DNA of 64,000 nt from Patescibacteria group bacterium (GTDB lineage Bacteria; Patescibacteriota; Minisyncoccia; Phycocordibacterales; PALSA-1337). Location: NCBI GenBank assembly GCA_038065395.1, contig JBBTRB010000003.1, positions 19,851-83,850 on the forward strand. Reading direction: 5' to 3'. The position numbers and the translations under genes were made by a program. The notes beneath the pieces are model-generated. The model was not told where the DNA came from, made no database searches, and saw only the letters and a program-made list of their open reading frames with translations. Below, in pieces: positions 6,422 through 63,118 of this stretch; the first letter of the stretch is position 1, and each line of letters begins with the position of its first letter.

Positions 6422-6446
6422 AGAAATGTAAGTTTAACTTTATTTT

Positions 6447-6527
6447 GTCATCCCCATGAAAATGGGGATCCAGGATGTCACCACACTCTGTGGCTAGATC
6501 CTGGATTCCCGCCTTCGCGGGAATGAC
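6447..6527. repeat. RPE-like palindromic repeat element, short form (copy 1)
   Basis: Left arm gtcatccccatgaaaatggggatccaggat, spacer, right arm atcctggattcccgccttcgcgggaatgac. Intergenic between the M16 peptidase start and the glyQS stop. Confidence 0.8.
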
Positions 6528-6529
6528 AA

Positions 6530-11543: not shown

Positions 11544-12218
11544 CTACAACTGTGACGCCTGCAAGGAAGCATTGATGATACCGTTCACTTGCACCCGTAT
11601 TGGTGAAAAAGTAGAGAGCAACTCGGCCGAGAGATCGTAGGACATGACGAATGGCTTGGTGACTTCATGGTCACCGATATAGCCGAGCAGGTTCAGGATA
11701 CGGAGCGCAGTGAGAGACTCGAGTTCCGGCAATTTCTCAGCGGGCATATGGCCACTTATTCCGACTGTTGACTCTAGACAGTCAAAAAGTTCTGGATGGG
11801 GATCTTCACCTTGCAGGAGGCGCTTGAGTAACGTGGACATACGGACGAGGAGTTGTGCGTGTATTTTTCTACTGTTTTTTAGTTTGTCATTCCCATGAAA
11901 ATGGGAATCCAGGATATCACCATGTCTTGTGAGCAGATCCTGGATTCCCGCTTGCGCCTCCGCTGCGCTTTGGCTTGCGGGAATGACAGACTGCTGCGCA
12001 CTCGTGAGCCTCCACACTTCTTTGCCCCTGACCAAAGAGAAAATACCGAGTGAATAGTCACTGGTATGGTAGCGGAGTTTCGACTTCTCGAGACGGATGC
12101 CTTGCGCGGCGACCGAGACGAGGCCAAGGTCACGCGTGAAGATCGACAACATCTTCCCTGCTTCGCCGTAGGGGCGTGAACCGATCACAAATCCAGGTGT
12201 AGTATGGATGCTGTACAT
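11544..12218 (-). CDS. recO: DNA repair protein RecO (short form) carrying an in-frame repeat insertion
   Basis: N-term GFVIGSRPYGEAGKMLSIFTRDLGLVSVAAQGIRLEKSKLR matches the RecO OB-fold. Codons 78-111 are encoded by the palindromic repeat. Confidence 0.7.
   Translation of the reverse strand: MYSIHTTPGFVIGSRPYGEAGKMLSIFTRDLGLVSVAAQGIRLEKSKLRYHTSDYSLGIFSLVRGKEVWRLTSAQQSVIPASQSAAEAQAGIQDLLTRHGDILDSHFHGNDKLKNSRKIHAQLLVRMSTLLKRLLQGEDPHPELFDCLESTVGISGHMPAEKLPELESLTALRILNLLGYIGDHEVTKPFVMSYDLSAELLSTFSPIRVQVNGIINASLQASQL
11886..11987. repeat. RPE-like palindromic repeat element (copy 2) inserted in-frame in recO
   Basis: 102 bp (34 codons) beginning on a codon boundary. Arms gtcattcccatgaaaatgggaatccaggat / atcctggattcccgc...gcgggaatgac. 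Encodes VIPASQSAAEAQAGIQDLLTRHGDILDSHFHGND. Confidence 0.8.
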
Positions 12219-12224
12219 CGTCTT

Positions 12225-15200
12225 TTATATTCTCACCGAGAACACTTCACCGTATTCTATAGCCGACAGTCCTGTTGTCTTCTTGATCTCCTGTTCGTAT
12301 TTCATAGCAAGAGGTCGCGCTTCTTCGGTGAGTGTAAGAATCGCCACATCATTCACAGAGAGATTTTTCTCTTTGCGAGCATCTTGGATCTTACGGATGA
12401 GTTCACGGAGATCTCCTTCTTCTTTCAAACTCGGAGTGATAGTGATATCGAGCTCGACATCCTGTGCGATCGAAGTGTCTGTTTTGACTTCTTTGACATT
12501 AACCTCGTCCTTCACAAGTTCGACGAGTTCTGGGGTCAACGATATTTCCTTCCTGACTTTGAGTGTCTGTAGTGGCTGACGAACATTGATCTTGGATTTC
12601 ATACGAGCTTCGAGACCGCGTGAGGCGAGATCACGTACGGTTTGCATATCGGTGATGAGGTTCTTATCGACTATTCCTGCTACTGGCCACTGCTCCAGAT
12701 GCACACTCTCCTTGTCACCTCCTACTTCCTGGTAGAGATACTCTGCGAAGAACGGCGTGAATGGCGCCATGACTTTCGCAAGTGTCACGAGAACATAGTG
12801 AGTCGTCTCCAGTGCATGTCGTGCATCTTCGCCACCATCTTTGAATCGGTCACGTGAACGACGCACATACCACTGTGACAAGTCGGCAATGAAGTCACGT
12901 ATCGCGCGTGTAGGTTCAAGTAACACGTACGCATCCAGACCTGTGGTCACATGCCCCACCAGTTCATCGAGCTTGGAAACAATCCATTTATCTAGCACGT
13001 GCGATGAATTGTTCAATTGTTCCTTTGTTGAATTGTTCCTTGTCCCTTCGTACATCTTATAAAACGTCGTGACATTCGTAACCAAGTTGAACACTTTTTT
13101 GATGATCTCATCGACGGTCTTCTGGTCGAAGTTCTTTGACTCGCCAGGTTGGTTGACCGAGTACATCCAGAAGCGCAATGCATCTGCACCATAGAGATCC
13201 ATCATGTCCCATGGGTTGACCACGTTGCCGATGGATTTGCTCATCTTCTTACCCTCAGCGTCGAGGATATGCCCGAGACAGATGACATTCTTGAATGCCT
13301 TGCCTTTGCCCATGAGTGCACCGATCGCATGGAGCGTATAGAACCACCCACGTGTCTGATCGATGGCTTCGGAGATAAAATCTGCAGGATAGTTGGTGGC
13401 TTTCTTGATCCCCAACAGCTTGCCGTCGATACGATCCTTATTCTCAAAAGGATAATGATCCTGTGCAAAAGGCATCGCCCCCGAGTCGAACCATACGTCC
13501 ATGACTTCTTTGACACGCTTCATCGGAGAACCGCATGAACATGTGAGCGTGACTTCATCTATATACGGACGATGAAGATCGAGTTCGTATTCATGGTTAT
13601 GAGGGAGGATGGAGAAATCCAAGACATGGAACTGTGCATTGTGTATAAAATCCACATCTTTGCGCATGTGCATGGACTCAGATCTATTCCAACCCTTGGC
13701 CGCAGCGAACAAGAGGAATGCGGGCGTCTCATGAGTGACGATCAGGATCTTCTTGCCTTCATGAGTACGTTCCATATCGTACAAAAAGTCACCCATGCGT
13801 TTCTTGATATCGGCGAATGTCTCACCTCCTTCGGGTGCCTGGGTAAATCGGTCGTGACCCTTAAAACCTTTCACAAAATCAGAAACACTCGTCCCATCTG
13901 CAGAACCAGTACCGAGTTCACGGAGACGCTCATCTGTATGCATCGCGCCCTTATCGAGACCCCACGTACTGCGAAGTATTTCTGCGCTTTCTTGCGTACG
14001 CACGAATGGTGACACATATATCATATCGAACTTTTCTTTCTTGAGAGCTTCAGCGGCCACAGTGACCTGAGTCTTTCCTTTCTCTGTGAGATGATGCGGA
14101 ACATCTGCCTTACCAGAAAGGATCGCCTTCACGTTATTCTCTGCCTCTCCATGTCGCATGACATAGTAGGTATTCTTGGGCTTCTGCGCGATCTCTGCCA
14201 CAGATCCTACGACCTGCCTTTTGTCACATCCAGTACATGCCCACACAGGCAGAGGCGTACCCCAATACCGTTCGCGTGAGATCGCCCAGTCTTTGACTTC
14301 TCGGAGCCATTCACCGAACCGACCCTGTCCGATATGAGCAGGTTCCCAAGCAATCTCTGTGTTCTCTGTGACGAGCTTGTCACGGAGCTCGGACATACGG
14401 ATATACCACGAGTCACGCGCAAAATAGATAAGCGGTGTTTTGCAACGCCAACAATGTGGGTAGGTATGCTCGTGTTTCTCTTTATGGAAAAGGAGGCTGC
14501 CCTCTGGGCGGAGCGCCAAGTTCTTGATGATCTCCACGGCAACTTCTTCGCTCTTCACAAACTTACCTGCAAGAAAACCAGCCTCAGACTTGAATGTGCC
14601 GTCATCGTTAACCAGATGATATTTTGGTAAGCCCACCTTTGTGCCAAGCTCAAAGTCGTCTTGGCCATACATCGGCGCGATATGGACGATGCCTGTACCA
14701 TCTTCAGTTGTAACAAAGTCCCCCGCGTATACCTTGAAGGCATTACTGAGCTTGTCTTTCTCTGTGCCGGTCACTCCGTCTTTCAAGAATGGATACAGTG
14801 GTTCATATTCGAGACCAACGAGGTCAGAGCCTTTGAATTCTTTTTCAATTTGATAGGATTCTTTGATCAAACTGAGACGAGTTTTTGCAAGGATGACTCG
14901 GGCGTCCGCGGTCTGATCCTGGATTCCCGTTTTCACGGGAATGACAATCTGGACATACTCAACATCGTTCCCTACCGCCAATCCGACGTTGCCCGGAAGA
15001 GTCCACGGAGTCGTCGTCCATGCCAAAAGAAATGTATTCTTGAATCTTGGATCCTGAATCTTGAACTTAACGTAAACCGACAAGTCTTTGACTGTCTCAT
15101 ACCCCTGCGCGAGTTCATGCGACGAGAGCCCGGTACCGCAGCGCGGACACCATGGTACGACTTTGTAATCCTTATAGAGGAGTTTCTTCTGTTCAACTGT

Positions 15201-15707
15201 CTTGACGATATTCCACAACGACTCGATATAGTTCGGCCTGTAGGTCACGTAGGGATCCTTGAGGTCGACCCAGTACCCCATGCGGTCAGTGAACTTCTCC
15301 CATTCACCGACATATCTCCAGACACTCTCTTTGCATTTCTCATTGAACTTTTCTATGCCGTAGACTTCGATCTCTTTTTTCGACTTGAGTCCGAGCTCTT
15401 TCTCGACTTGGAGTTCCACAGGTAGACCGTGAGTGTCCCAGCCTCCCTTACGACGAACATGGAAGCCCTGCATGGTTTTGTAACGAGGGATAGCGTCCTT
15501 GAAAGCACGAGCCTCGAGGTGGTGGATACCGGGCATGCCGTTGGCTGTCGGAGGTCCTTCGAAGAAGGTGAACTCTCCTTGTGGCGCGTCTTTGTTCAGA
15601 GTCTTGGCGAAGATCCCCTTCTCCTTCCAGGACGCAAGGATACGCTCCTCACGTTCAGCATGAGTGCTTTTGGTATTCTTCTTTTCTGGGGTAACAGGTT
15701 CAGACAT
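12225..15707 (-). CDS. ileS: isoleucine--tRNA ligase with an inserted histidine-phosphatase (PGAM-like) domain
   Basis: 1160 aa with KMSKS, WCPRCGT, TTPWTLP editing and DLHRPYIDE motifs. An extra ~200 aa between the Zn knuckle and DLHRP carries YVMRHGEAENN and SPFVRTQESAEIL. Confidence 0.95.
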   Translation of the reverse strand: MSEPVTPEKKNTKSTHAEREERILASWKEKGIFAKTLNKDAPQGEFTFFEGPPTANGMPGIHHLEARAFKDAIPRYKTMQGFHVRRKGGWDTHGLPVELQVEKELGLKSKKEIEVYGIEKFNEKCKESVWRYVGEWEKFTDRMGYWVDLKDPYVTYRPNYIESLWNIVKTVEQKKLLYKDYKVVPWCPRCGTGLSSHELAQGYETVKDLSVYVKFKIQDPRFKNTFLLAWTTTPWTLPGNVGLAVGNDVEYVQIVIPVKTGIQDQTADARVILAKTRLSLIKESYQIEKEFKGSDLVGLEYEPLYPFLKDGVTGTEKDKLSNAFKVYAGDFVTTEDGTGIVHIAPMYGQDDFELGTKVGLPKYHLVNDDGTFKSEAGFLAGKFVKSEEVAVEIIKNLALRPEGSLLFHKEKHEHTYPHCWRCKTPLIYFARDSWYIRMSELRDKLVTENTEIAWEPAHIGQGRFGEWLREVKDWAISRERYWGTPLPVWACTGCDKRQVVGSVAEIAQKPKNTYYVMRHGEAENNVKAILSGKADVPHHLTEKGKTQVTVAAEALKKEKFDMIYVSPFVRTQESAEILRSTWGLDKGAMHTDERLRELGTGSADGTSVSDFVKGFKGHDRFTQAPEGGETFADIKKRMGDFLYDMERTHEGKKILIVTHETPAFLLFAAAKGWNRSESMHMRKDVDFIHNAQFHVLDFSILPHNHEYELDLHRPYIDEVTLTCSCGSPMKRVKEVMDVWFDSGAMPFAQDHYPFENKDRIDGKLLGIKKATNYPADFISEAIDQTRGWFYTLHAIGALMGKGKAFKNVICLGHILDAEGKKMSKSIGNVVNPWDMMDLYGADALRFWMYSVNQPGESKNFDQKTVDEIIKKVFNLVTNVTTFYKMYEGTRNNSTKEQLNNSSHVLDKWIVSKLDELVGHVTTGLDAYVLLEPTRAIRDFIADLSQWYVRRSRDRFKDGGEDARHALETTHYVLVTLAKVMAPFTPFFAEYLYQEVGGDKESVHLEQWPVAGIVDKNLITDMQTVRDLASRGLEARMKSKINVRQPLQTLKVRKEISLTPELVELVKDEVNVKEVKTDTSIAQDVELDITITPSLKEEGDLRELIRKIQDARKEKNLSVNDVAILTLTEEARPLAMKYEQEIKKTTGLSAIEYGEVFSVRI
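14916..14945. repeat. solo arm of the RPE-like element inside ileS (in-frame)
   Basis: atcctggattcccgttttcacgggaatgac; on the coding strand it encodes VIPVKTGIQD (10 codons). Confidence 0.6.
15041..15065. repeat. 25-nt mini-repeat (CYTGAATCTTRRATCCTRWATCTTG family) inside ileS
   Basis: tgaatcttggatcctgaatcttgaa encodes KFKIQDPRF; similar to two copies in argS. Confidence 0.4.
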
Positions 15708-17498: not shown

Positions 17499-17650
17499 GT
17501 GGTGATTGTAGCAGAAAAGATCAGTCCTCTGTTACTTGACGTAATTGACATATCATGTAATTATGCTACCGGATTGAACTCTCTTTTGTTTTCCAATTCT
17601 TTCACCACAATAGCCTTTAGGCTGAAACAAGAGAACTTACATAGGCATGA

Positions 17651-18185: not shown

Positions 18186-18211
18186 CCCCGATATCTGTCG
18201 GGGTGTTTTTT
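18186..18211 (+). terminator. intrinsic terminator
   Basis: ccccga-tatctg-tcgggg followed by TTTTTT. Confidence 0.55.
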
Positions 18212-19409
18212 ATCTCCTCAAAACCTCATCTATCCTCTTTGCAATCTTCCTAAAATCTTTTTCCTTTTTGCCACGAGTCGTCTCTGCAGCAGTGCCGAGA
18301 CGGATACCGGATGGGTCAACTGCGCTGCGCGTCTCACCAGGGATGGTGTTCTTGTTCACGATGATGCCCACCTTCTCTAGTCGATCACTGGCATCTTTCC
18401 CTGAAATACCTTGCCCGCCCATCCAGGTGTCCATGAGGACAAGATGACTATCCGTGCCGCCAGAGATGATCTTCCAGCCGAGAGTCTTGAGTTCATCGGC
18501 CAATGCTGCAGCATTCTTCACCACCTGTGTAGCGTATTTTTTGAAAGCTGGAGTAGAGGCTTCTTTGAGTGCAACCGCTACCGCCGCGATCTGGTTGAGG
18601 TGAGGTCCACCCTGAAGTCCCGGGAATACCGCCTTGTCGATCAGCTCGCCGAAGGTCTGCTCTTTGCCTTTTGAATTTACGATCTTCTTATCAGTTCTTG
18701 AAAAGATCAGTGCACTGCGTGGACCACGGAGAGTCTTGTGTACCGTGGTAGTGACCACATCTGCATATGGGAATGGTGACGGATAGGCCTTGCCCGCAAC
18801 CAGTCCCGCGAAGTGCGACATATCCACCATCAGGATCGCACCACAGGCATCGGCGATCTCACGGAGCTTTTTGAAGTCTACCGTGCGCGGATATGCCGTG
18901 AATCCTCCGACGATGATCGCCGGCTTCTCGGACAGTGCCTTGGTCTTGAGATCTTCATAGTCGATAGTCTCAGTTTTGGGATCAACTCCGAACGGAACCT
19001 GGACCCACACCTTGCCGGTCATCGAAACTTTGTGACCATGAGTCAGATGTCCCCCGTGATCGAGTGACATACCCATGATCTTGCCTCCGAGCGGGACCAG
19101 TGCCAAATACACCGCCAGGTTCGCTGGTGATCCCGAGAGCGCCTGTACATTGACCTGCCACTCTGTAGGACTGAGACTGAATAATTTCAACGCGCGCTCT
19201 TGTGCCAGAGACTCGACCTTGTCGACGACCTGGTTACCACCATAATATCTCTTGCCTGGATAGCCTTCGGCGTATTTGTTGGTCAGTTCCGAACCCAATG
19301 CTTCGAGCACGTCTTTTGAGACTATGTTCTCTGAGGCAATGAGGTTGATGACGCTTTTCTGGCGCTTCTTCTCGGCATCTATGAGCTTTTTGATCTGGGC
19401 ATCTTTCAT
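18210..19409 (-). CDS. glyA: serine hydroxymethyltransferase
   Basis: 399 aa with TNKYAEGYPGKRYYGGNQVVD and the PLP-lysine context HKTLRGPR. Confidence 0.95.
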   Translation of the reverse strand: MKDAQIKKLIDAEKKRQKSVINLIASENIVSKDVLEALGSELTNKYAEGYPGKRYYGGNQVVDKVESLAQERALKLFSLSPTEWQVNVQALSGSPANLAVYLALVPLGGKIMGMSLDHGGHLTHGHKVSMTGKVWVQVPFGVDPKTETIDYEDLKTKALSEKPAIIVGGFTAYPRTVDFKKLREIADACGAILMVDMSHFAGLVAGKAYPSPFPYADVVTTTVHKTLRGPRSALIFSRTDKKIVNSKGKEQTFGELIDKAVFPGLQGGPHLNQIAAVAVALKEASTPAFKKYATQVVKNAAALADELKTLGWKIISGGTDSHLVLMDTWMGGQGISGKDASDRLEKVGIIVNKNTIPGETRSAVDPSGIRLGTAAETTRGKKEKDFRKIAKRIDEVLRR

Positions 19410-20568
19410 GGCGGCATTGTAGCATACCGATACAAAAAGGGGCCCACCTACTCAATCCTGAGAAGATGGGCCTTGAACTAAGAAGTTTTATGCAATCGTA
19501 TTGTTGAACTGAGAGACCCGAAACACTGAAGTCTGTAGATGCATGCCGGTGAGGAACCGTGGCGAGTAGTAAAACCGTAGCAAGATGTCACGGGGCACCT
19601 ATTGTTTCCAATTCAATCAGTCCGTCTCAGATAATACAACTTTCACAAGAATAGAAAAGGGCTCGCTGCACGAATGCAACGAGCCCGAATGCACGATCTA
19701 ACCAAGGATCGTAGTGGAGATGCGGCCCAATGGAACCGCGCAATATCTCGGCACAGACACCAGGAAGGGCGCTGACCGAGCTGCATCAGATTCAAACAAA
19801 GAACCGCACCTCCACATACAACTATAACCTATATGTGGAGAAAGTCAATGATTCAAGCTAGAACTTTAGTACACCTCTACCCCGTTCCACCCTTCGACCT
19901 ATAAAAGAAAGGGGGCTGCCATCTTGCGAATGGCAGCCCTTGTCTATACACATATGCTTTTAGACAGATCGATGCGCCAGAGAGTCCGAGTGATGCGCCG
20001 GGGGCGGTTGAGGGAACCTGAAGAGACCTAGTAGCTATAGGTCGGCATTACTCGGAACGACACGACCAGTCCGCCGACTATAATAGACCCTTCATCCCCA
20101 TGCAGTCAACAGGTTATCCACCGAGTTGTGCACAGGAACAATTCTCCGCAGGTTAAGAGCGTATCCACAATCTTCATATGCGAGGCAGCTTCGAGCGAAG
20201 ACTCGAGCCTTATTCCGGCTAACGAGGAGCGCGTGAATGTATCCTACATTCACAGCGTCCGAGTGAAGACGGGACAAGTGAATCTTATTGGATATAAGGT
20301 GAGAGTTTGAGCGAAGAAGATAACGAAGCAGATGGAGATTGTGGCCTAGCTCTAAGAAAAAAGACCGTCCCGAAGGAAGGTCTTGAGATTGGTCGGTGTC
20401 GAGGTCAGGTCTAACGGAACCTATGCAGCCAGGCTTGGTTGACCCAGGAAGGATCGGTCGAAGTACCCCCATATCTAAGTATTCTCACACAGGTCAAAGA
20501 AGATGGTTGCCACAATGAGCCCTCGACACCGGCCATAGAGAGTAGCGTGTTATGAGGATGAAGTCAAT
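19410..20568. other. ~1.15 kb ORF-poor hairpin-rich region; candidate large structured ncRNA or decayed element
   Basis: Only low-complexity short ORFs. Many perfect 6-10 bp hairpins. Contains one copy each of the 38-nt promoter-like motif (19878) and the 40-nt motif shared with 33783. Confidence 0.3.
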
Positions 20569-20991
20569 CTATTTCCCTGTACTACCAAAACCCCCTTGTC
20601 CTCTCGTTGTATCAGTAAGCTCTGAAACCTCCTCAATTTCCATCTGCTCCACTTTTTGGATAAGAATTTGTGCAACTTTATGACCAGCTTCAAACACATA
20701 TTCTTCTGCAGAAAGATTGATCGTACCAACAAGGACTTCACCCCTATATCCCGCATCAACCACTCCACCCAGTGTTTTGATACCCTCTTTTATAGCAATA
20801 CCACTCTTATCCCAGATCAGCCCCACATACCCTTCAGGAATCTCCAGAGCAATACCCGTACGAACAGCCTTTCGTTCCCCTGATTTCAGAATGGTCTTTT
20901 CCAGAGCATAGAGATCCAGGCCCGCATCATACTCATGTGCACGTGAGGGTAGCTTCGCGGCAGGATCAAGTTTTTTGATACGGAGGATCAT
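20569..20991 (-). CDS. dut: dUTP diphosphatase
   Basis: 140 aa with AGLDLYA, RTGIALEIPEGYVGLIWDKSGIA and GVVDAGYRGE motifs. Confidence 0.85.
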   Translation of the reverse strand: MILRIKKLDPAAKLPSRAHEYDAGLDLYALEKTILKSGERKAVRTGIALEIPEGYVGLIWDKSGIAIKEGIKTLGGVVDAGYRGEVLVGTINLSAEEYVFEAGHKVAQILIQKVEQMEIEEVSELTDTTRGQGGFGSTGK

Positions 20992-24668: not shown

Positions 24669-24727
24669 GATGGTGTTTATGAGTGTATCTTAACTTATCA
24701 TATTACACCTCATGCTACAATAATCCT

Positions 24728-25237: not shown

Positions 25238-25253
25238 TAATGACCCTGGTTTT

Positions 25254-25431
25254 GTCATCCCCGCGAAGGCGGGGATCCAGGAGTAAGGGCGTAGCTACTT
25301 ACTTAACTCTATACAATTACAAAAGTCAGCATCATGTACATGAATGCTGACTTTCTGTTTTCTGTGATTAGATAAACCGATCGAACCATATACTGAAAGT
25401 GATTCTGGATCCCCGCCTTCGCGGGGATGAC
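25254..25431. repeat. RPE-like palindromic repeat element, long form (copy 3)
   Basis: Arms gtcatccccgcgaaggcggggatccaggag / attctggatccccgccttcgcggggatgac flank an AT-rich core with a perfect 9-bp hairpin agtcagcat...atgctgact. Confidence 0.8.
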
Positions 25432-25438
25432 ACGCAAT

Positions 25439-27986: not shown

Positions 27987-28028
27987 ATAGATATATTTAT
28001 CTGGTAATTACGTTCATTATACATGCGT

Positions 28029-28110
28029 GTCATCCCCGTGAAAACGGGGATCCAGGATATGACCACGTCATGTGACCAGAATCCTGGATTCCCGCATACG
28101 CGGGAATGAC
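28029..28110. repeat. RPE-like palindromic repeat element, short form (copy 4)
   Basis: gtcatccccgtgaaaacggggatccaggat ... atcctggattcccgcatacgcgggaatgac; ends 4 nt before the folD stop codon. Confidence 0.8.
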
Positions 28111-28113
28111 ATT

Positions 28114-33769: not shown

Positions 33770-33782
33770 TCTCTAAGAATAA

Positions 33783-33830
33783 CAGATCGTAGAAAATAAC
33801 GAAGCGGATGGAGATCGTGGACTAGCCTCT
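33783..33830. repeat. ~40-nt motif shared with 20315-20358
   Basis: aataacgaagcggatggagatcgtggactagcctctaaag versus gataacgaagcagatggagattgtggcctagctctaag. Confidence 0.4.
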
Positions 33831-35048: not shown

Positions 35049-35393
35049 GCACACATTGTAGCATCTGTAATATCCCCCAGTGTATGTATGGGAATAAAAA
35101 AGAGCCGCCCGTGCGATTCGCATGCAGATGCGAGATGCGCGGGCGGTGCTCTGGTGGGTGTGTGTCTTGCGACACATGGGGATGATGTCCCTTTTACGTA
35201 GACGCGAGGAGCGGCTACGCGGTCAGTACAATAGGTTCAGTGAAACGATTGCCGTTCATGATGCCTGCTTGTTCGAGTGGACCTTTGGTCGACTTGTTCA
35301 GTACAAACTGGTCCGAGGAATATACTACTCCTTCATAAAAAGTCATGCAAGCCCACGTGTGCATATCTCAGTAGCAAGGTCGGACCTTGCTGG

Positions 35394-38163: not shown

Positions 38164-38177
38164 CCTCGACTATTGTT

Positions 38178-38351
38178 AGTTGCTACTATCCGTCGAGCCA
38201 CCTAGGTTGATCTCGAGTCCCCCCTTATCTTCCCCTTCTTCTTTGCCCATGAAGAATCCTTGCGTATACGCGATCCATACCACGATCGCGATGACGACGA
38301 TCACGAGAATGCCCACCACCATACCTGTACCCGAAGATTCGTTATTCATAT
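38178..38351 (-). CDS. hypothetical 57-aa single-TM peptide
   Basis: MNNESSGTGMVVGILVIVVIAIVVWIAYTQGFF...; below the ORF-track cutoff. Confidence 0.25.
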
Positions 38352-38410
38352 TTTAATTTGATTAAAAGCGAATAATACCTACCATGTATAGTATAGCGTG
38401 GAATGAAATT

Positions 38411-38431
38411 GGGTGCCTAATGGGATTCGAA
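38411..38431. repeat. 21-bp direct repeat of the tRNA-His 3' end (distal att site of the integrated element)
   Basis: gggtgcctaatgggattcgaa is identical to 56965-56985 inside tRNA-His. Confidence 0.8.
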
Positions 38432-38673
38432 GCTTACAGCTTCAGTACACCTTTCGCATTTTCTTCCCTTCTTCGCTAAAGCTTCGAAGTGTCGAAAATA
38501 TGCTCAAGGTCTTCGAATCCCATCCGCAAGGTGCGCAGGCACCTTGCTTAGTCACCCCTACGCAAAAATTCCCACGCGGGAATTTTGCTACGGGGTCGCG
38601 TGGTCGCGCAGGTTAGGACAATATTCGAGAAAATTGATGACGCGACGATCTACATTCCAAGCTTCAAAGATTG

Positions 38674-38712
38674 TTACCCCACACCTGCTCTCACTATATC
38701 TAAAAAATAATC
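38674..38712. repeat. promoter-like 39-nt motif, copy at left end of the island
   Basis: ttaccccacacctgctctcactatatctaaaaaataatc; 38/39 identical to 45677-45715. Confidence 0.5.
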
Positions 38713-38727
38713 TGACTCCCAAAATTG

Positions 38728-45236: not shown

Positions 45237-45677
45237 CTAGAAAAGTTTAGGGTTTAAAATACCGCTTGAGAAAGCTTCCTTTAGAGGATTCGGGATGGAA
45301 ATCCTGTTTTTTAGGAAAAAGTTTCTGTATAAATTTGAAAGAGGCGGATTGGATGTATAAAAGATTTCACGCACGCCAAGCAATGCAAGCAGAGCGAGTA
45401 GAGAAAAGACGAGAGAAAGTGCTTCCTTTGCCGGAAGGACAGTAAACATATTTTGCCATGCCTGAATGTGCTCCATTGGCGACATTTTACAGATAGAGCT
45501 ATGGCCCGGCATGAACGGACAGTTAATAGGCTTTGGTCCGTAGTGTCCCGCCATTGCAAAATGGGATATTCCAAAAAGAAGAGTGACTAGAGTAAGCCCG
45601 ATGATAGCAAAGGTTAGAATTTTGAGGATTTTTGATCGCACGGTGTTAATTATATATTTTTGTTGGCCAATCGTCAT
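45237..45677 (-). CDS. hypothetical membrane protein
   Basis: 146 aa; the start codon lies inside the 39-nt motif. Confidence 0.4.
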   Translation of the reverse strand: MTIGQQKYIINTVRSKILKILTFAIIGLTLVTLLFGISHFAMAGHYGPKPINCPFMPGHSSICKMSPMEHIQAWQNMFTVLPAKEALSLVFSLLALLALLGVREIFYTSNPPLSNLYRNFFLKNRISIPNPLKEAFSSGILNPKLF

Positions 45678-46090
45678 TACCCCACACCTGCGCTCACTAT
45701 ATCTAAAAAATAATCCTGAACCCCCATTTTACCTGTAAATGCAGGTGTTCACCATTTTCCACCCTTTTTAAATGGGGGTTGACCACCGTTTTTTCACCGT
45801 TTTTAAACGGTGGTTACCCCCACTCTCACTCGCTATCTCGCTCAAAAAGTAGTTCCCGTTAATTTCCCGTTATTACGGGAACTTGGAAAGGCCTACCCCA
45901 CAGTCTCATTCACTATTTCGAGCTACTTCACCGATGACCGTAATCACCGTAATTTTGGACCGGACCAACTCACCTGTTATTCTCCTGTTCTATCAGGTGA
46001 GTACCCGCTAATTCACCGCTAATAAGGGTAGGAGAAACAGGTGCTTATCAGGAGTTATCAGGCTGCAAGGTTTTACCGTAAATCACAGCT
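45677..46090. repeat. non-coding array: three promoter-like motifs, each followed by duplicated 8-10 nt iterons and hairpins
   Basis: Motif copies at 45677, 45826 and 45893. Iteron pairs caccgttttt x2, cccgtta x2, accgtaat x2, cctgttat x2, ccgctaat x2, ttatcagg x2, several with adjacent inverted copies. Confidence 0.5.
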
Positions 46091-46095
46091 TGCGA

Positions 46096-58345: not shown

Positions 58346-58448
58346 CTTACCATATAGTTATTTTATGTTCAAGTTTTTCCTCATACATAGGCCCTGAAAG
58401 TATCGTTTTCATGAAACATTGTGCTACAATCAATTTCATAAAAACTAT

Positions 58449-62769: not shown

Positions 62770-62909
62770 ACCAACCTTTCTGATCCTCTCGGATCTCTTG
62801 CAATCCCCTCTCGGGGATATTATGTATGTTCTTGCTCTCGCAAGAGGCTTACAACGTGCAAACCTGACTGAACTCTATGCTTTTTCGGGAAGATGTCAAA
62901 TGCGGTTGT

Positions 62910-63095
62910 GTCATCCTCGCGCAGGCGGGGATCTAGGAGCAAGGGCATGGCTACTTATTTAATATCTATACAACCACAAAACATTAGATACTATCCCTGT
63001 AAGTAAATGCCGAACCTATCACATTTATTATTTACATAGCCTAAGTCGACTATATACTGGGAGTGATTCTGGATCCCCGCCTGCGCGGGGATGAC
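62910..63095. repeat. RPE-like palindromic repeat element, long form (copy 5)
   Basis: gtcatcctcgcgcaggcggggatctaggag ... attctggatccccgcctgcgcggggatgac. Inner termini aagggcatggctactta... and ...atatactgggagtg match the 25254 copy. Confidence 0.8.
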
Positions 63096-63118
63096 ACAGG
63101 ACAGAGAGATATGTAGGT

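Follow-up and report, generated by a model that had tools for sequence, protein, structure and literature searches.

A gene-free region between dut and glyA in Patescibacteria is probably a composite of small RNA-like units around a DnaA-box promoter

Between dut and glyA in a 64-kb stretch of Patescibacteria DNA (the window, meaning the whole stretch that was analysed) there is a gene-free gap of 1159 nt, 19410-20568. The gap was read on the minus strand, since dut and glyA both lie on it. It is probably a composite of small minus-strand units, a small-RNA (sRNA) locus controlled by DnaA that was expanded by duplication and insertion, and does not represent a large RNA of a new type. From dut to glyA, the proposed layout would comprise Unit A with its own promoter and terminator (T1), Insertion 1, a promoter set among DnaA boxes (P_X), Units D1, D2 and D3, and the glyA promoter (Table 1). 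The neighbourhood is a cluster of deoxythymidine monophosphate (dTMP) and one-carbon genes, thyA, dut, glyA, dCMP deaminase and DHFR, with argS also nearby. To our knowledge, very little has been learned so far about how genes are regulated in the Patescibacteria (candidate phyla radiation, CPR) or about their small RNAs. The locus yields a strongly selected non-coding element absent from Rfam (Unit A) and a promoter that many genomes of one family-level clade keep upstream of glyA (P_X). It also shows how intergenic DNA grows, by duplication of an sRNA unit and by insertion of palindromic modules. The sequence of the window is present, identically, in contig CAYHKE010000001.1 of the Patescibacteria metagenome-assembled genome GCA_964357315.1 and in short groundwater contigs.

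The gap was compared with related loci totalling up to 724 kb of Patescibacteria sequence, and four-fold degenerate sites of glyA were used as a neutral yardstick between genome pairs. Among 60 genome and 69 metagenome glyA loci, with glyA identities of at most 87%, the gap was unalignable except for about 27 nt at P_X. Two closer relatives, L134 (glyA 93% identical) and L135 (89%), were found by protein search and contig look-ups, and in both the same gap is only about 495-580 nt long. When the gap was compared with L134 by blastn, three collinear blocks were obtained that are contiguous there (24-241, 244-303 and 310-516) and are set apart in the window by 219 nt and 455 nt. The same three blocks are found in L135, where both extra pieces are likewise missing. 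By glyA identity the window groups with L134 and L135 falls outside. Because both relatives lack both pieces, and one of them is the outside branch, the extra pieces are most simply insertions in the lineage of the window. The ancestral spacer would then most simply have been about 500-580 nt long, in the order A - P_X - D - glyA promoter. To reach 1159 nt, it would have gained about 215 nt by insertion and, in a second event, about 450 nt by insertion or duplication.

The gene upstream of P_X varies among the relatives (dut, tmk or thyA), while the gene downstream is always glyA. A thymidylate kinase gene lies between dut and the DnaA-box promoter in L023 (327-1000) and L025 (6780-7430), and tmk stands before dut in L135 and L144. 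The dTMP gene cluster has been repeatedly rearranged around a constant promoter-glyA core.

Unit A as a whole, from promoter to T1 (20567-20354), is a promoter-to-terminator unit of about 180 nt. The promoter-like site starts directly past the dut stop codon and was read from the sequence, its -10 being too weak for the consensus promoter scanner; alignment showed that its hexamers and spacing are kept in L134 and L135. The pairwise identity of the core with these two relatives is 85-87%. Four-fold degenerate glyA sites of the same genome pairs are 38-48% identical, near saturation, indicating that Unit A is under strong purifying selection. The selected sequence is non-coding, since its indels are not multiples of 3, the downstream frames differ and the ATG is missing in L135. 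The kept -35/-10 pair and T1, the non-coding character and the conservation above neutral are those expected of a stand-alone sRNA gene.

The closing stem of Unit A is 11 bp long (CGGTGTCGAGG / CCTCGACACCG), is invariant in the three sequences and surrounds a multi-branch interior in which the hairpin loop GAUCCUUCCUG is conserved. The RNAalifold consensus of these three similar sequences is a multi-branch structure with 46 pairs, 3 of them compensatory, and this modelled secondary structure is plausible. Conservation lies largely in unpaired positions, with long unpaired stretches kept, and the linker from the closing stem to T1 differs by 24 nt in L135. The Unit A covariance model recovered only its three training sequences in 694 kb, and neither this model nor nhmmer turned up another copy, whether in the window, among 60 related loci or among the later loci. 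Unit A blocks used as exact patterns matched nothing in viral contigs, further homologues sought via dut homologues were not found, and comparison with Rfam gave no match. From these comparisons, Unit A is a clade-restricted candidate, confined to three species, for a selected non-coding RNA not in Rfam. A kinship of Unit A with the RNAs behind P_X in L005, L047 and L136, which have GAGGGYTCATTGT and CCTTCC in common with it, was considered and rejected, as the alignment z was at most 3.1. It is distinctly unlikely that Unit A represents a new class of ligand- or protein-binding regulatory RNA which, together with the DnaA-box promoter and the D-type RNAs, would form a Patescibacteria-specific circuit coupling replication-initiator status to thymidylate and one-carbon metabolism.

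A promoter was classed as putatively DnaA-regulated when at least two boxes (TTATNCACA, at most one mismatch) were at or next to it and conserved in relatives, and P_X has at least two such conserved boxes. The sites TGTGCACAA and GGTGGATAA match the reverse complement of the box and are 12 nt apart. When 14 loci were aligned on the -35, the boxes fell in one register. The 724 kb of relatives' loci contain 15 pairs of boxes spaced with a period of 11-13 nt, and 11 of these are upstream of glyA on its strand. Two others lie 15-45 nt upstream of argS (L023, 3483-3514; L025, 10065-10085), so the putative DnaA regulon may extend beyond glyA. In L140 the boxes are directly on the glyA promoter. A full-text literature search for "DnaA box" with glyA returned an incidental mention only.

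Promoters repressed by DnaA include that of dnaA itself, which is autoregulated in B. subtilis and E. coli, and those of nrdAB and sda. Like these, P_X is a sigma-70 promoter with several TTATNCACA boxes on or flanking the -35 and the spacer, in a neighbourhood of nucleotide and replication metabolism. By analogy with them, DnaA would be expected to bind and repress P_X. Unlike the known cases, P_X is predicted to drive short terminated non-coding units upstream of glyA, and its boxes all point the same way, head-to-tail, repeating every 11-12 nt.

In the window, P_X would transcribe D1, the first half of insertion 2 (about 20078-19624), of which D2 is the second half. A copy of TATTAT-N7-GGACTG stands on either side of insertion 2 (20085-20067 and 19636-19618), and D1 and D3 have this sequence in common at the 5' end. 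Global alignment of D1 with Unit D and its L134 orthologue gave z = 5.3-6.2, against 3.7-4.0 for D3 with L135. D1 aligns as well as true orthologues do and is therefore taken to be a diverged duplicate of Unit D that now stands behind P_X. Its fold z is -3.7. D2 contains a small hairpin in addition to its long rod and has the most stable fold in the gap (z = -7.3); no significant similarity to D2 was found among the window and relatives' loci sequences compared.

D3 contains the stem UAGGUGC/GCAUCUA and the hairpin CGG-UUCCUCA-CCG, and is 73% identical to L134 and about 45% identical to L135. Compensatory change in Unit D affects seven pairs, in the 7-bp stem and in terminator T4, and all four D sequences retain both the CGG-UUCCUCA-CCG mini-hairpin and the terminator. 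D3 is taken to be the orthologue of the single unit that P_X would drive in the relatives, D1 its diverged duplicate and D2 an orphan. Across the wider family the sequences behind P_X range from about 110 to 545 nt, and a strong terminator always precedes the glyA promoter; within groups of alignable sequences, the terminators and stems show compensatory changes.

Given the position of TGCTACAAT, transcription would begin with the A of the glyA start codon, and the glyA mRNA is predicted to be leaderless. The arrangement TGNTACAAT-N6-ATG is found upstream of glyA in many relatives, and the same geometry is seen at argS in the window. Sites with TGCTACAAT are at 19416-19424, 17505-17513 (argS), 24713-24721, 35055-35063 and 58422-58430, and a variant, TGTTATTCT, is at 33776-33784, 6 nt before the start codon of a gene at 33.8 kb; among these sites the 6-nt spacing to the start codon was established for glyA, argS and the 33.8-kb gene. 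A -10-like hexamer is at that position in 16 of 68 window genes and a Shine-Dalgarno (SD)-like motif is found in 12 of 68. The placement of the extended -10 suggests leaderless mRNAs.

The sequence comparisons show the anatomy of the gap, its conservation, its insertions, the box array and the absence of a coding signal; a mechanism of action may be proposed for P_X. DnaA on the box array would occlude RNA polymerase, and P_X would fire only when active DnaA is low, giving short terminated RNAs. These RNAs may act in trans via conserved C/U-rich hairpin loops (UUCCUCA, CCUUCC) or, alternatively, in cis, through transcription beside the glyA promoter. Either route would tie replication status to the dTMP and one-carbon cluster, and a box-array promoter would let the replication initiator address these genes in regulator-poor cells. 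The C/U-rich loops (GAUCCUUCCUG in Unit A, UUCCUCA in the D sequences, CUUCCU in D2) suggest base pairing. A cis effect is equally possible, and it would explain the poor family-wide conservation of the transcribed sequence. The units resemble trans-acting sRNAs with C/U-rich loops, such as RsaE/RoxS, in their predicted build, a structured RNA of 150-200 nt with a promoter of its own and ending at an intrinsic terminator, and in their conserved C/U-rich apical loops in Unit A and Unit D. They differ from that type in that no sRNA sequence or structure in Rfam matches them and in that the host uses few SD sequences.

Several observations weigh against a DnaA-controlled sRNA locus. The promoters and terminators are consensus matches only, and DnaA binding at P_X is read from a sequence motif only. 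In the window, D3 is without a -35 and boxes and may be silent. Family-wide, the sequences behind P_X form four mutually unalignable groups, which fit a cis or spacer role as well as they fit fast-evolving sRNAs. The fold z of Unit A is only -1.2 to -1.9 relative to shuffles, and its structure is not established by the few compensatory pairs given above. Moreover, the small share of genes with an SD-like motif weakens the idea that the C/U-rich loops target ribosome-binding sites.

Insertion 1 is largely a 198-nt imperfect palindrome (20156-20353) whose 26-nt terminal arms, 20156-20181 and 20328-20353, are 77% complementary. It folds far better than shuffles, with z = -6.3 for the plus strand and z = -3.5 for the minus strand. 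The end of Insertion 1 (20315-20355) is the 40-nt motif that an earlier note on this DNA had recognized as shared with a second site, and the repeat is real: 20315-20350 and 33791-33826 are 89% identical over 36 nt (E = 6e-5). The second site (to 33830) is intergenic, at 33.8 kb, and another leaderless-type promoter follows closely downstream of it. The element has terminal inverted repeats, ambiguous ends of the form TTA...TAA, and one full and one 36-nt partial copy in 64 kb. No second full copy was detected in the window or in the 724 kb of relatives' loci, and Insertion 1 resembled none of the other sequences compared. Two Logan contigs (L002 and L003), independent assemblies of the same organism, both end at the base corresponding to window 20185, inside the palindrome; a repeat, an assembly break caused by the hairpin or strain heterogeneity could account for the shared end point. 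Furthermore, a 128-nt module flanked by GGTAC, with a closing stem of about 14 bp, is present in L136 (4720-4850) and L047 (7690-7830) and missing from the otherwise near-identical gap of L006 (about position 320). It looks like a small palindromic insertion or deletion and indicates that such modules come and go at this intergenic site. A hairpin repeat family (GTCATCCCCGCGAAGGCGGGGATCCAGGA...) resembling repetitive extragenic palindromic (REP) sequences or miniature inverted-repeat transposable elements (MITEs) is abundant in intergenic sites of the window (6439-6529, 11878-11968, 14890-14947, 25248-25306, 25385-25433, 28021-28112, 62904-62962 and 63040-63097), with no member in the gap.

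The possibility was considered that parts of the gap are functionless MITE- or REP-like remnants, Insertion 1 and D2 having landed in a permissive spot and the hairpins being inverted repeats. Insertion 1 is like such elements in being lineage-specific, intergenic and palindromic with inverted terminal arms and TTA/TAA-like ends, D2 is also absent from both close relatives, one Insertion 1 arm recurs at 33.8 kb, the stem-closed GGTAC module is present or absent at the same spot in related genomes, and another abundant hairpin repeat family exists in the window. However, only one full and one 36-nt partial copy of Insertion 1 were found in the sequences compared, its arms are imperfectly complementary, there is no clear target-site duplication and tblastx revealed no transposase remnant. 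Such remnants would also leave the conserved Unit A, P_X and Unit D unexplained, and this explanation is possible but unlikely. The suggestion in the earlier note that the gap might be a decayed element holds to the extent that the two lineage-specific insertions are element-like; translated and profile searches for a pseudogene gave nothing, the best tblastx value of the gap against 140 related loci being E = 0.2, with no translated similarity.

A long regulated glyA leader, in which Unit A would be a riboswitch-like aptamer, T1 its expression platform and the later terminators serial attenuators, has a slim chance of being correct. Unit A does resemble the THF, ZTP/pfl and glycine riboswitches in its position upstream of glyA and its order of promoter, conserved multi-stem element and terminator, with much of the conservation unpaired; the folate and dTMP gene context and the L140 boxes directly at the glyA promoter also agree with a leader. 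Against this, a conserved promoter of the leaderless type serves glyA itself, 6 nt before the ATG, the gap contains three to four strong terminators in series, and T1 is followed by a second conserved promoter and non-coding units where a riboswitch would have an open reading frame (ORF). The aptamer and platform controlling a downstream coding gene that define a riboswitch are thus not found in Unit A. The variable linker before T1 also speaks against an expression platform, and no THF, ZTP, glycine, T-box or other Rfam riboswitch matched, Unit A having no covariance-model match up to E = 10.

The DnaA-box cluster could also be viewed as a replication origin or as a DnaA-control site of the datA/DARS type, given that it lies in a long non-coding stretch, but this is very improbable. 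The cumulative GC skew falls steadily from 17 to 23 kb with no turning point, so that an origin here can be discounted. In 14 loci the boxes occupy constant positions relative to a -35/-10 pair, similar arrays are found just upstream of argS in L023 and L025, and the adjacent genes are thyA, dut, glyA and argS, with no dnaA or dnaN. Most improbable of all is the possibility raised in the earlier note of a single large novel structured RNA, which would fill all 1.15 kb and be comparable to GOLLD, ROOL or OLE. Like GOLLD, ROOL, OLE, HEARO and raiA, the gap is long, ORF-free and hairpin-dense. The minimum free energy of the whole region is -419 kcal/mol for the minus strand, below the -388 kcal/mol of the plus strand. 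Unlike those large RNAs, the gap has no Rfam match and is not conserved as a unit, about 60% of it (219 + 455 nt) being missing in the nearest relatives. It is interrupted by four internal intrinsic terminators and folds significantly in local units only, so that a single large structured RNA is already contradicted. Folding more stable than shuffles was confined to 19575-19950 and 20175-20324. The comparison of related genomes that the earlier note had put forward revealed the three blocks held in common with L134 and L135, and covariation in Unit A was limited to its three compensatory pairs.

The observations on the gap in the earlier note were otherwise largely confirmed. The only ORF of more than 100 aa (20092-20472, minus strand, 126 aa) has no Pfam, NCBIfam or PHROG match and crosses a terminator, the P_X promoter with its DnaA boxes and an insertion missing in the closest relative, in agreement with the view that there is no credible ORF. 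With this ORF set aside, the gap is the largest in the window. Searches of Pfam, NCBIfam and PHROGs with 10 small gap ORFs gave nothing credible, and blastn against phage records gave no match. All named hairpins were recovered (gggctcg/cgagccc, 19659-19686; ctccacata/tatgtggag, 19810-19840; gtcggc/gccgac, 20041-20078). The gap contains 3 perfect hairpins whose stems are 8 bp or longer, compared with 0.15 in shuffles and 0.62 per equal-sized window tile, and 3 were reached in only 16 of 315 tiles; four of the gap hairpins are predicted intrinsic terminators on the minus strand. For the 38-nt promoter-like motif at 19878, no copy with up to 3 mismatches was found, and what does repeat is the loose pattern TATAG-N8-20-GGGGTA, with 3 sites in the window (19878, 38675 and 45678) against 0.14 expected.

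The lack of any known RNA signature was likewise upheld. Rfam 15 covariance models, including 6S, SRP, RNase P, tmRNA, riboswitches and GOLLD/ROOL/OLE/HEARO, gave no match in the window at the gathering score and, when values up to E = 10 were allowed, only two chance matches within 19300-20700. For L134 and L135, the orthologous gaps gave none, or one chance match, up to the same value. ARAGORN found no tRNA or tmRNA in the gap and Tandem Repeats Finder no tandem repeats.

A number of further candidates were set aside. The T2 hairpin is similar over 20 aa to GGHLTHG, a motif of SHMT (E = 1.6-7), which was judged to be chance, and a tmk remnant, suggested by tmk at the equivalent position in L023 and L025, left no trace by tblastx. 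A type I toxin was ruled out since no small gap ORF is hydrophobic, and tandem interspersed guide RNA (TIGR) arrays since the gap has no tandem repeats. A T-box-like string (GGGTGGAAC) and a ZTP-like string, both seen by eye, were dropped because Rfam gave no match.

Table 1. Features of the dut-glyA gap and its flanking genes, in window coordinates; promoters, terminators and DnaA boxes are predictions.
Feature	Position	Strand	Description
dut	20569-20991	minus	Pfam dUTPase match
Unit A promoter-like site	20539-20567	minus	-35 TTGACT 20562-20567, 17-nt spacer, -10 TACTCT 20539-20544
Unit A core	20391-20532	minus	142 nt; conserved non-coding RNA-like element
Terminator T1	20354-20384	minus	AAGACCUUCCUUCGGGACGGUCUU, then U-run; kept in L134 and L135
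Insertion 1	20139-20353		about 215 nt; missing in L134 and L135; interrupts the blastn alignment to L134
Further DnaA box TGTGGATAC	20161-20169		
DnaA-box array	20092-20134	minus	3-4 head-to-tail boxes, 11-12 nt period
DnaA box TGTGCACAA	20126-20134	minus	upstream of P_X -35
DnaA box GGTGGATAA	20114-20122	minus	3 nt upstream of P_X -35
Degenerate DnaA box TGTTGACTG		minus	overlaps P_X -35
Box-like site TGGGGATGA	20092-20100	minus	in P_X spacer
Promoter P_X	20080-20109	minus	TTGACT, 18-nt spacer, TATTAT; scanner 10/12; kept in relatives
Unit D1	19898-20073	minus	stretch P_X would transcribe here; ends at T2; diverged paralogue of Unit D
Terminator T2	19939-19900	minus	stem 19913-19939 and U-run; scanner
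Unit D2, orphan	19645-19897	minus	second half of insertion 2
D2 loose motif	19878-19903	minus	TATAG..GGGGTA
D2 promoter-like site	19821-19848	minus	TTGACT-16-TATAGT
D2 rod-like hairpin	19714-19815	minus	100 nt; apical loop CUUCCU
Terminator T3	19686-19645	minus	stem 19659-19686; ends D2
Unit D (D3)	19430-19636	minus	orthologue of RNA-like unit directly behind P_X in relatives
D3 relic -10	19631-19636	minus	TATTAT
D3 GGACTG	19618-19623	minus	
Terminator T4	19472-19432	minus	stem 19441-19472 and U-run; ends D3
glyA promoter	19410-19424	minus	extended -10 TGCTACAAT 19416-19424, 6 nt, ATG at 19409
glyA	18210-19409	minus	SHMT match

Elsewhere in the window, the isoleucyl-tRNA synthetase (12225-15707, minus strand) has a complete histidine-phosphatase (His_Phos_1) domain at residues 515-682, inserted between the halves of its catalytic domain, an architecture also called in L001, L002 and L136. 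Further ORF-poor stretches are found at 45678-46095 and 38164-38727 (minus strand). The former has three spaced copies of ATAG(T/C)GAG...GTGGGGTA(A/G), the last of which ends on the ATG of the gene at 45237-45677, and a series of hairpins with TTTAAAAA loops between the motif copies. The latter opens with the same ATAG(T/C)GAG motif and contains a small membrane-like ORF of 57 aa.

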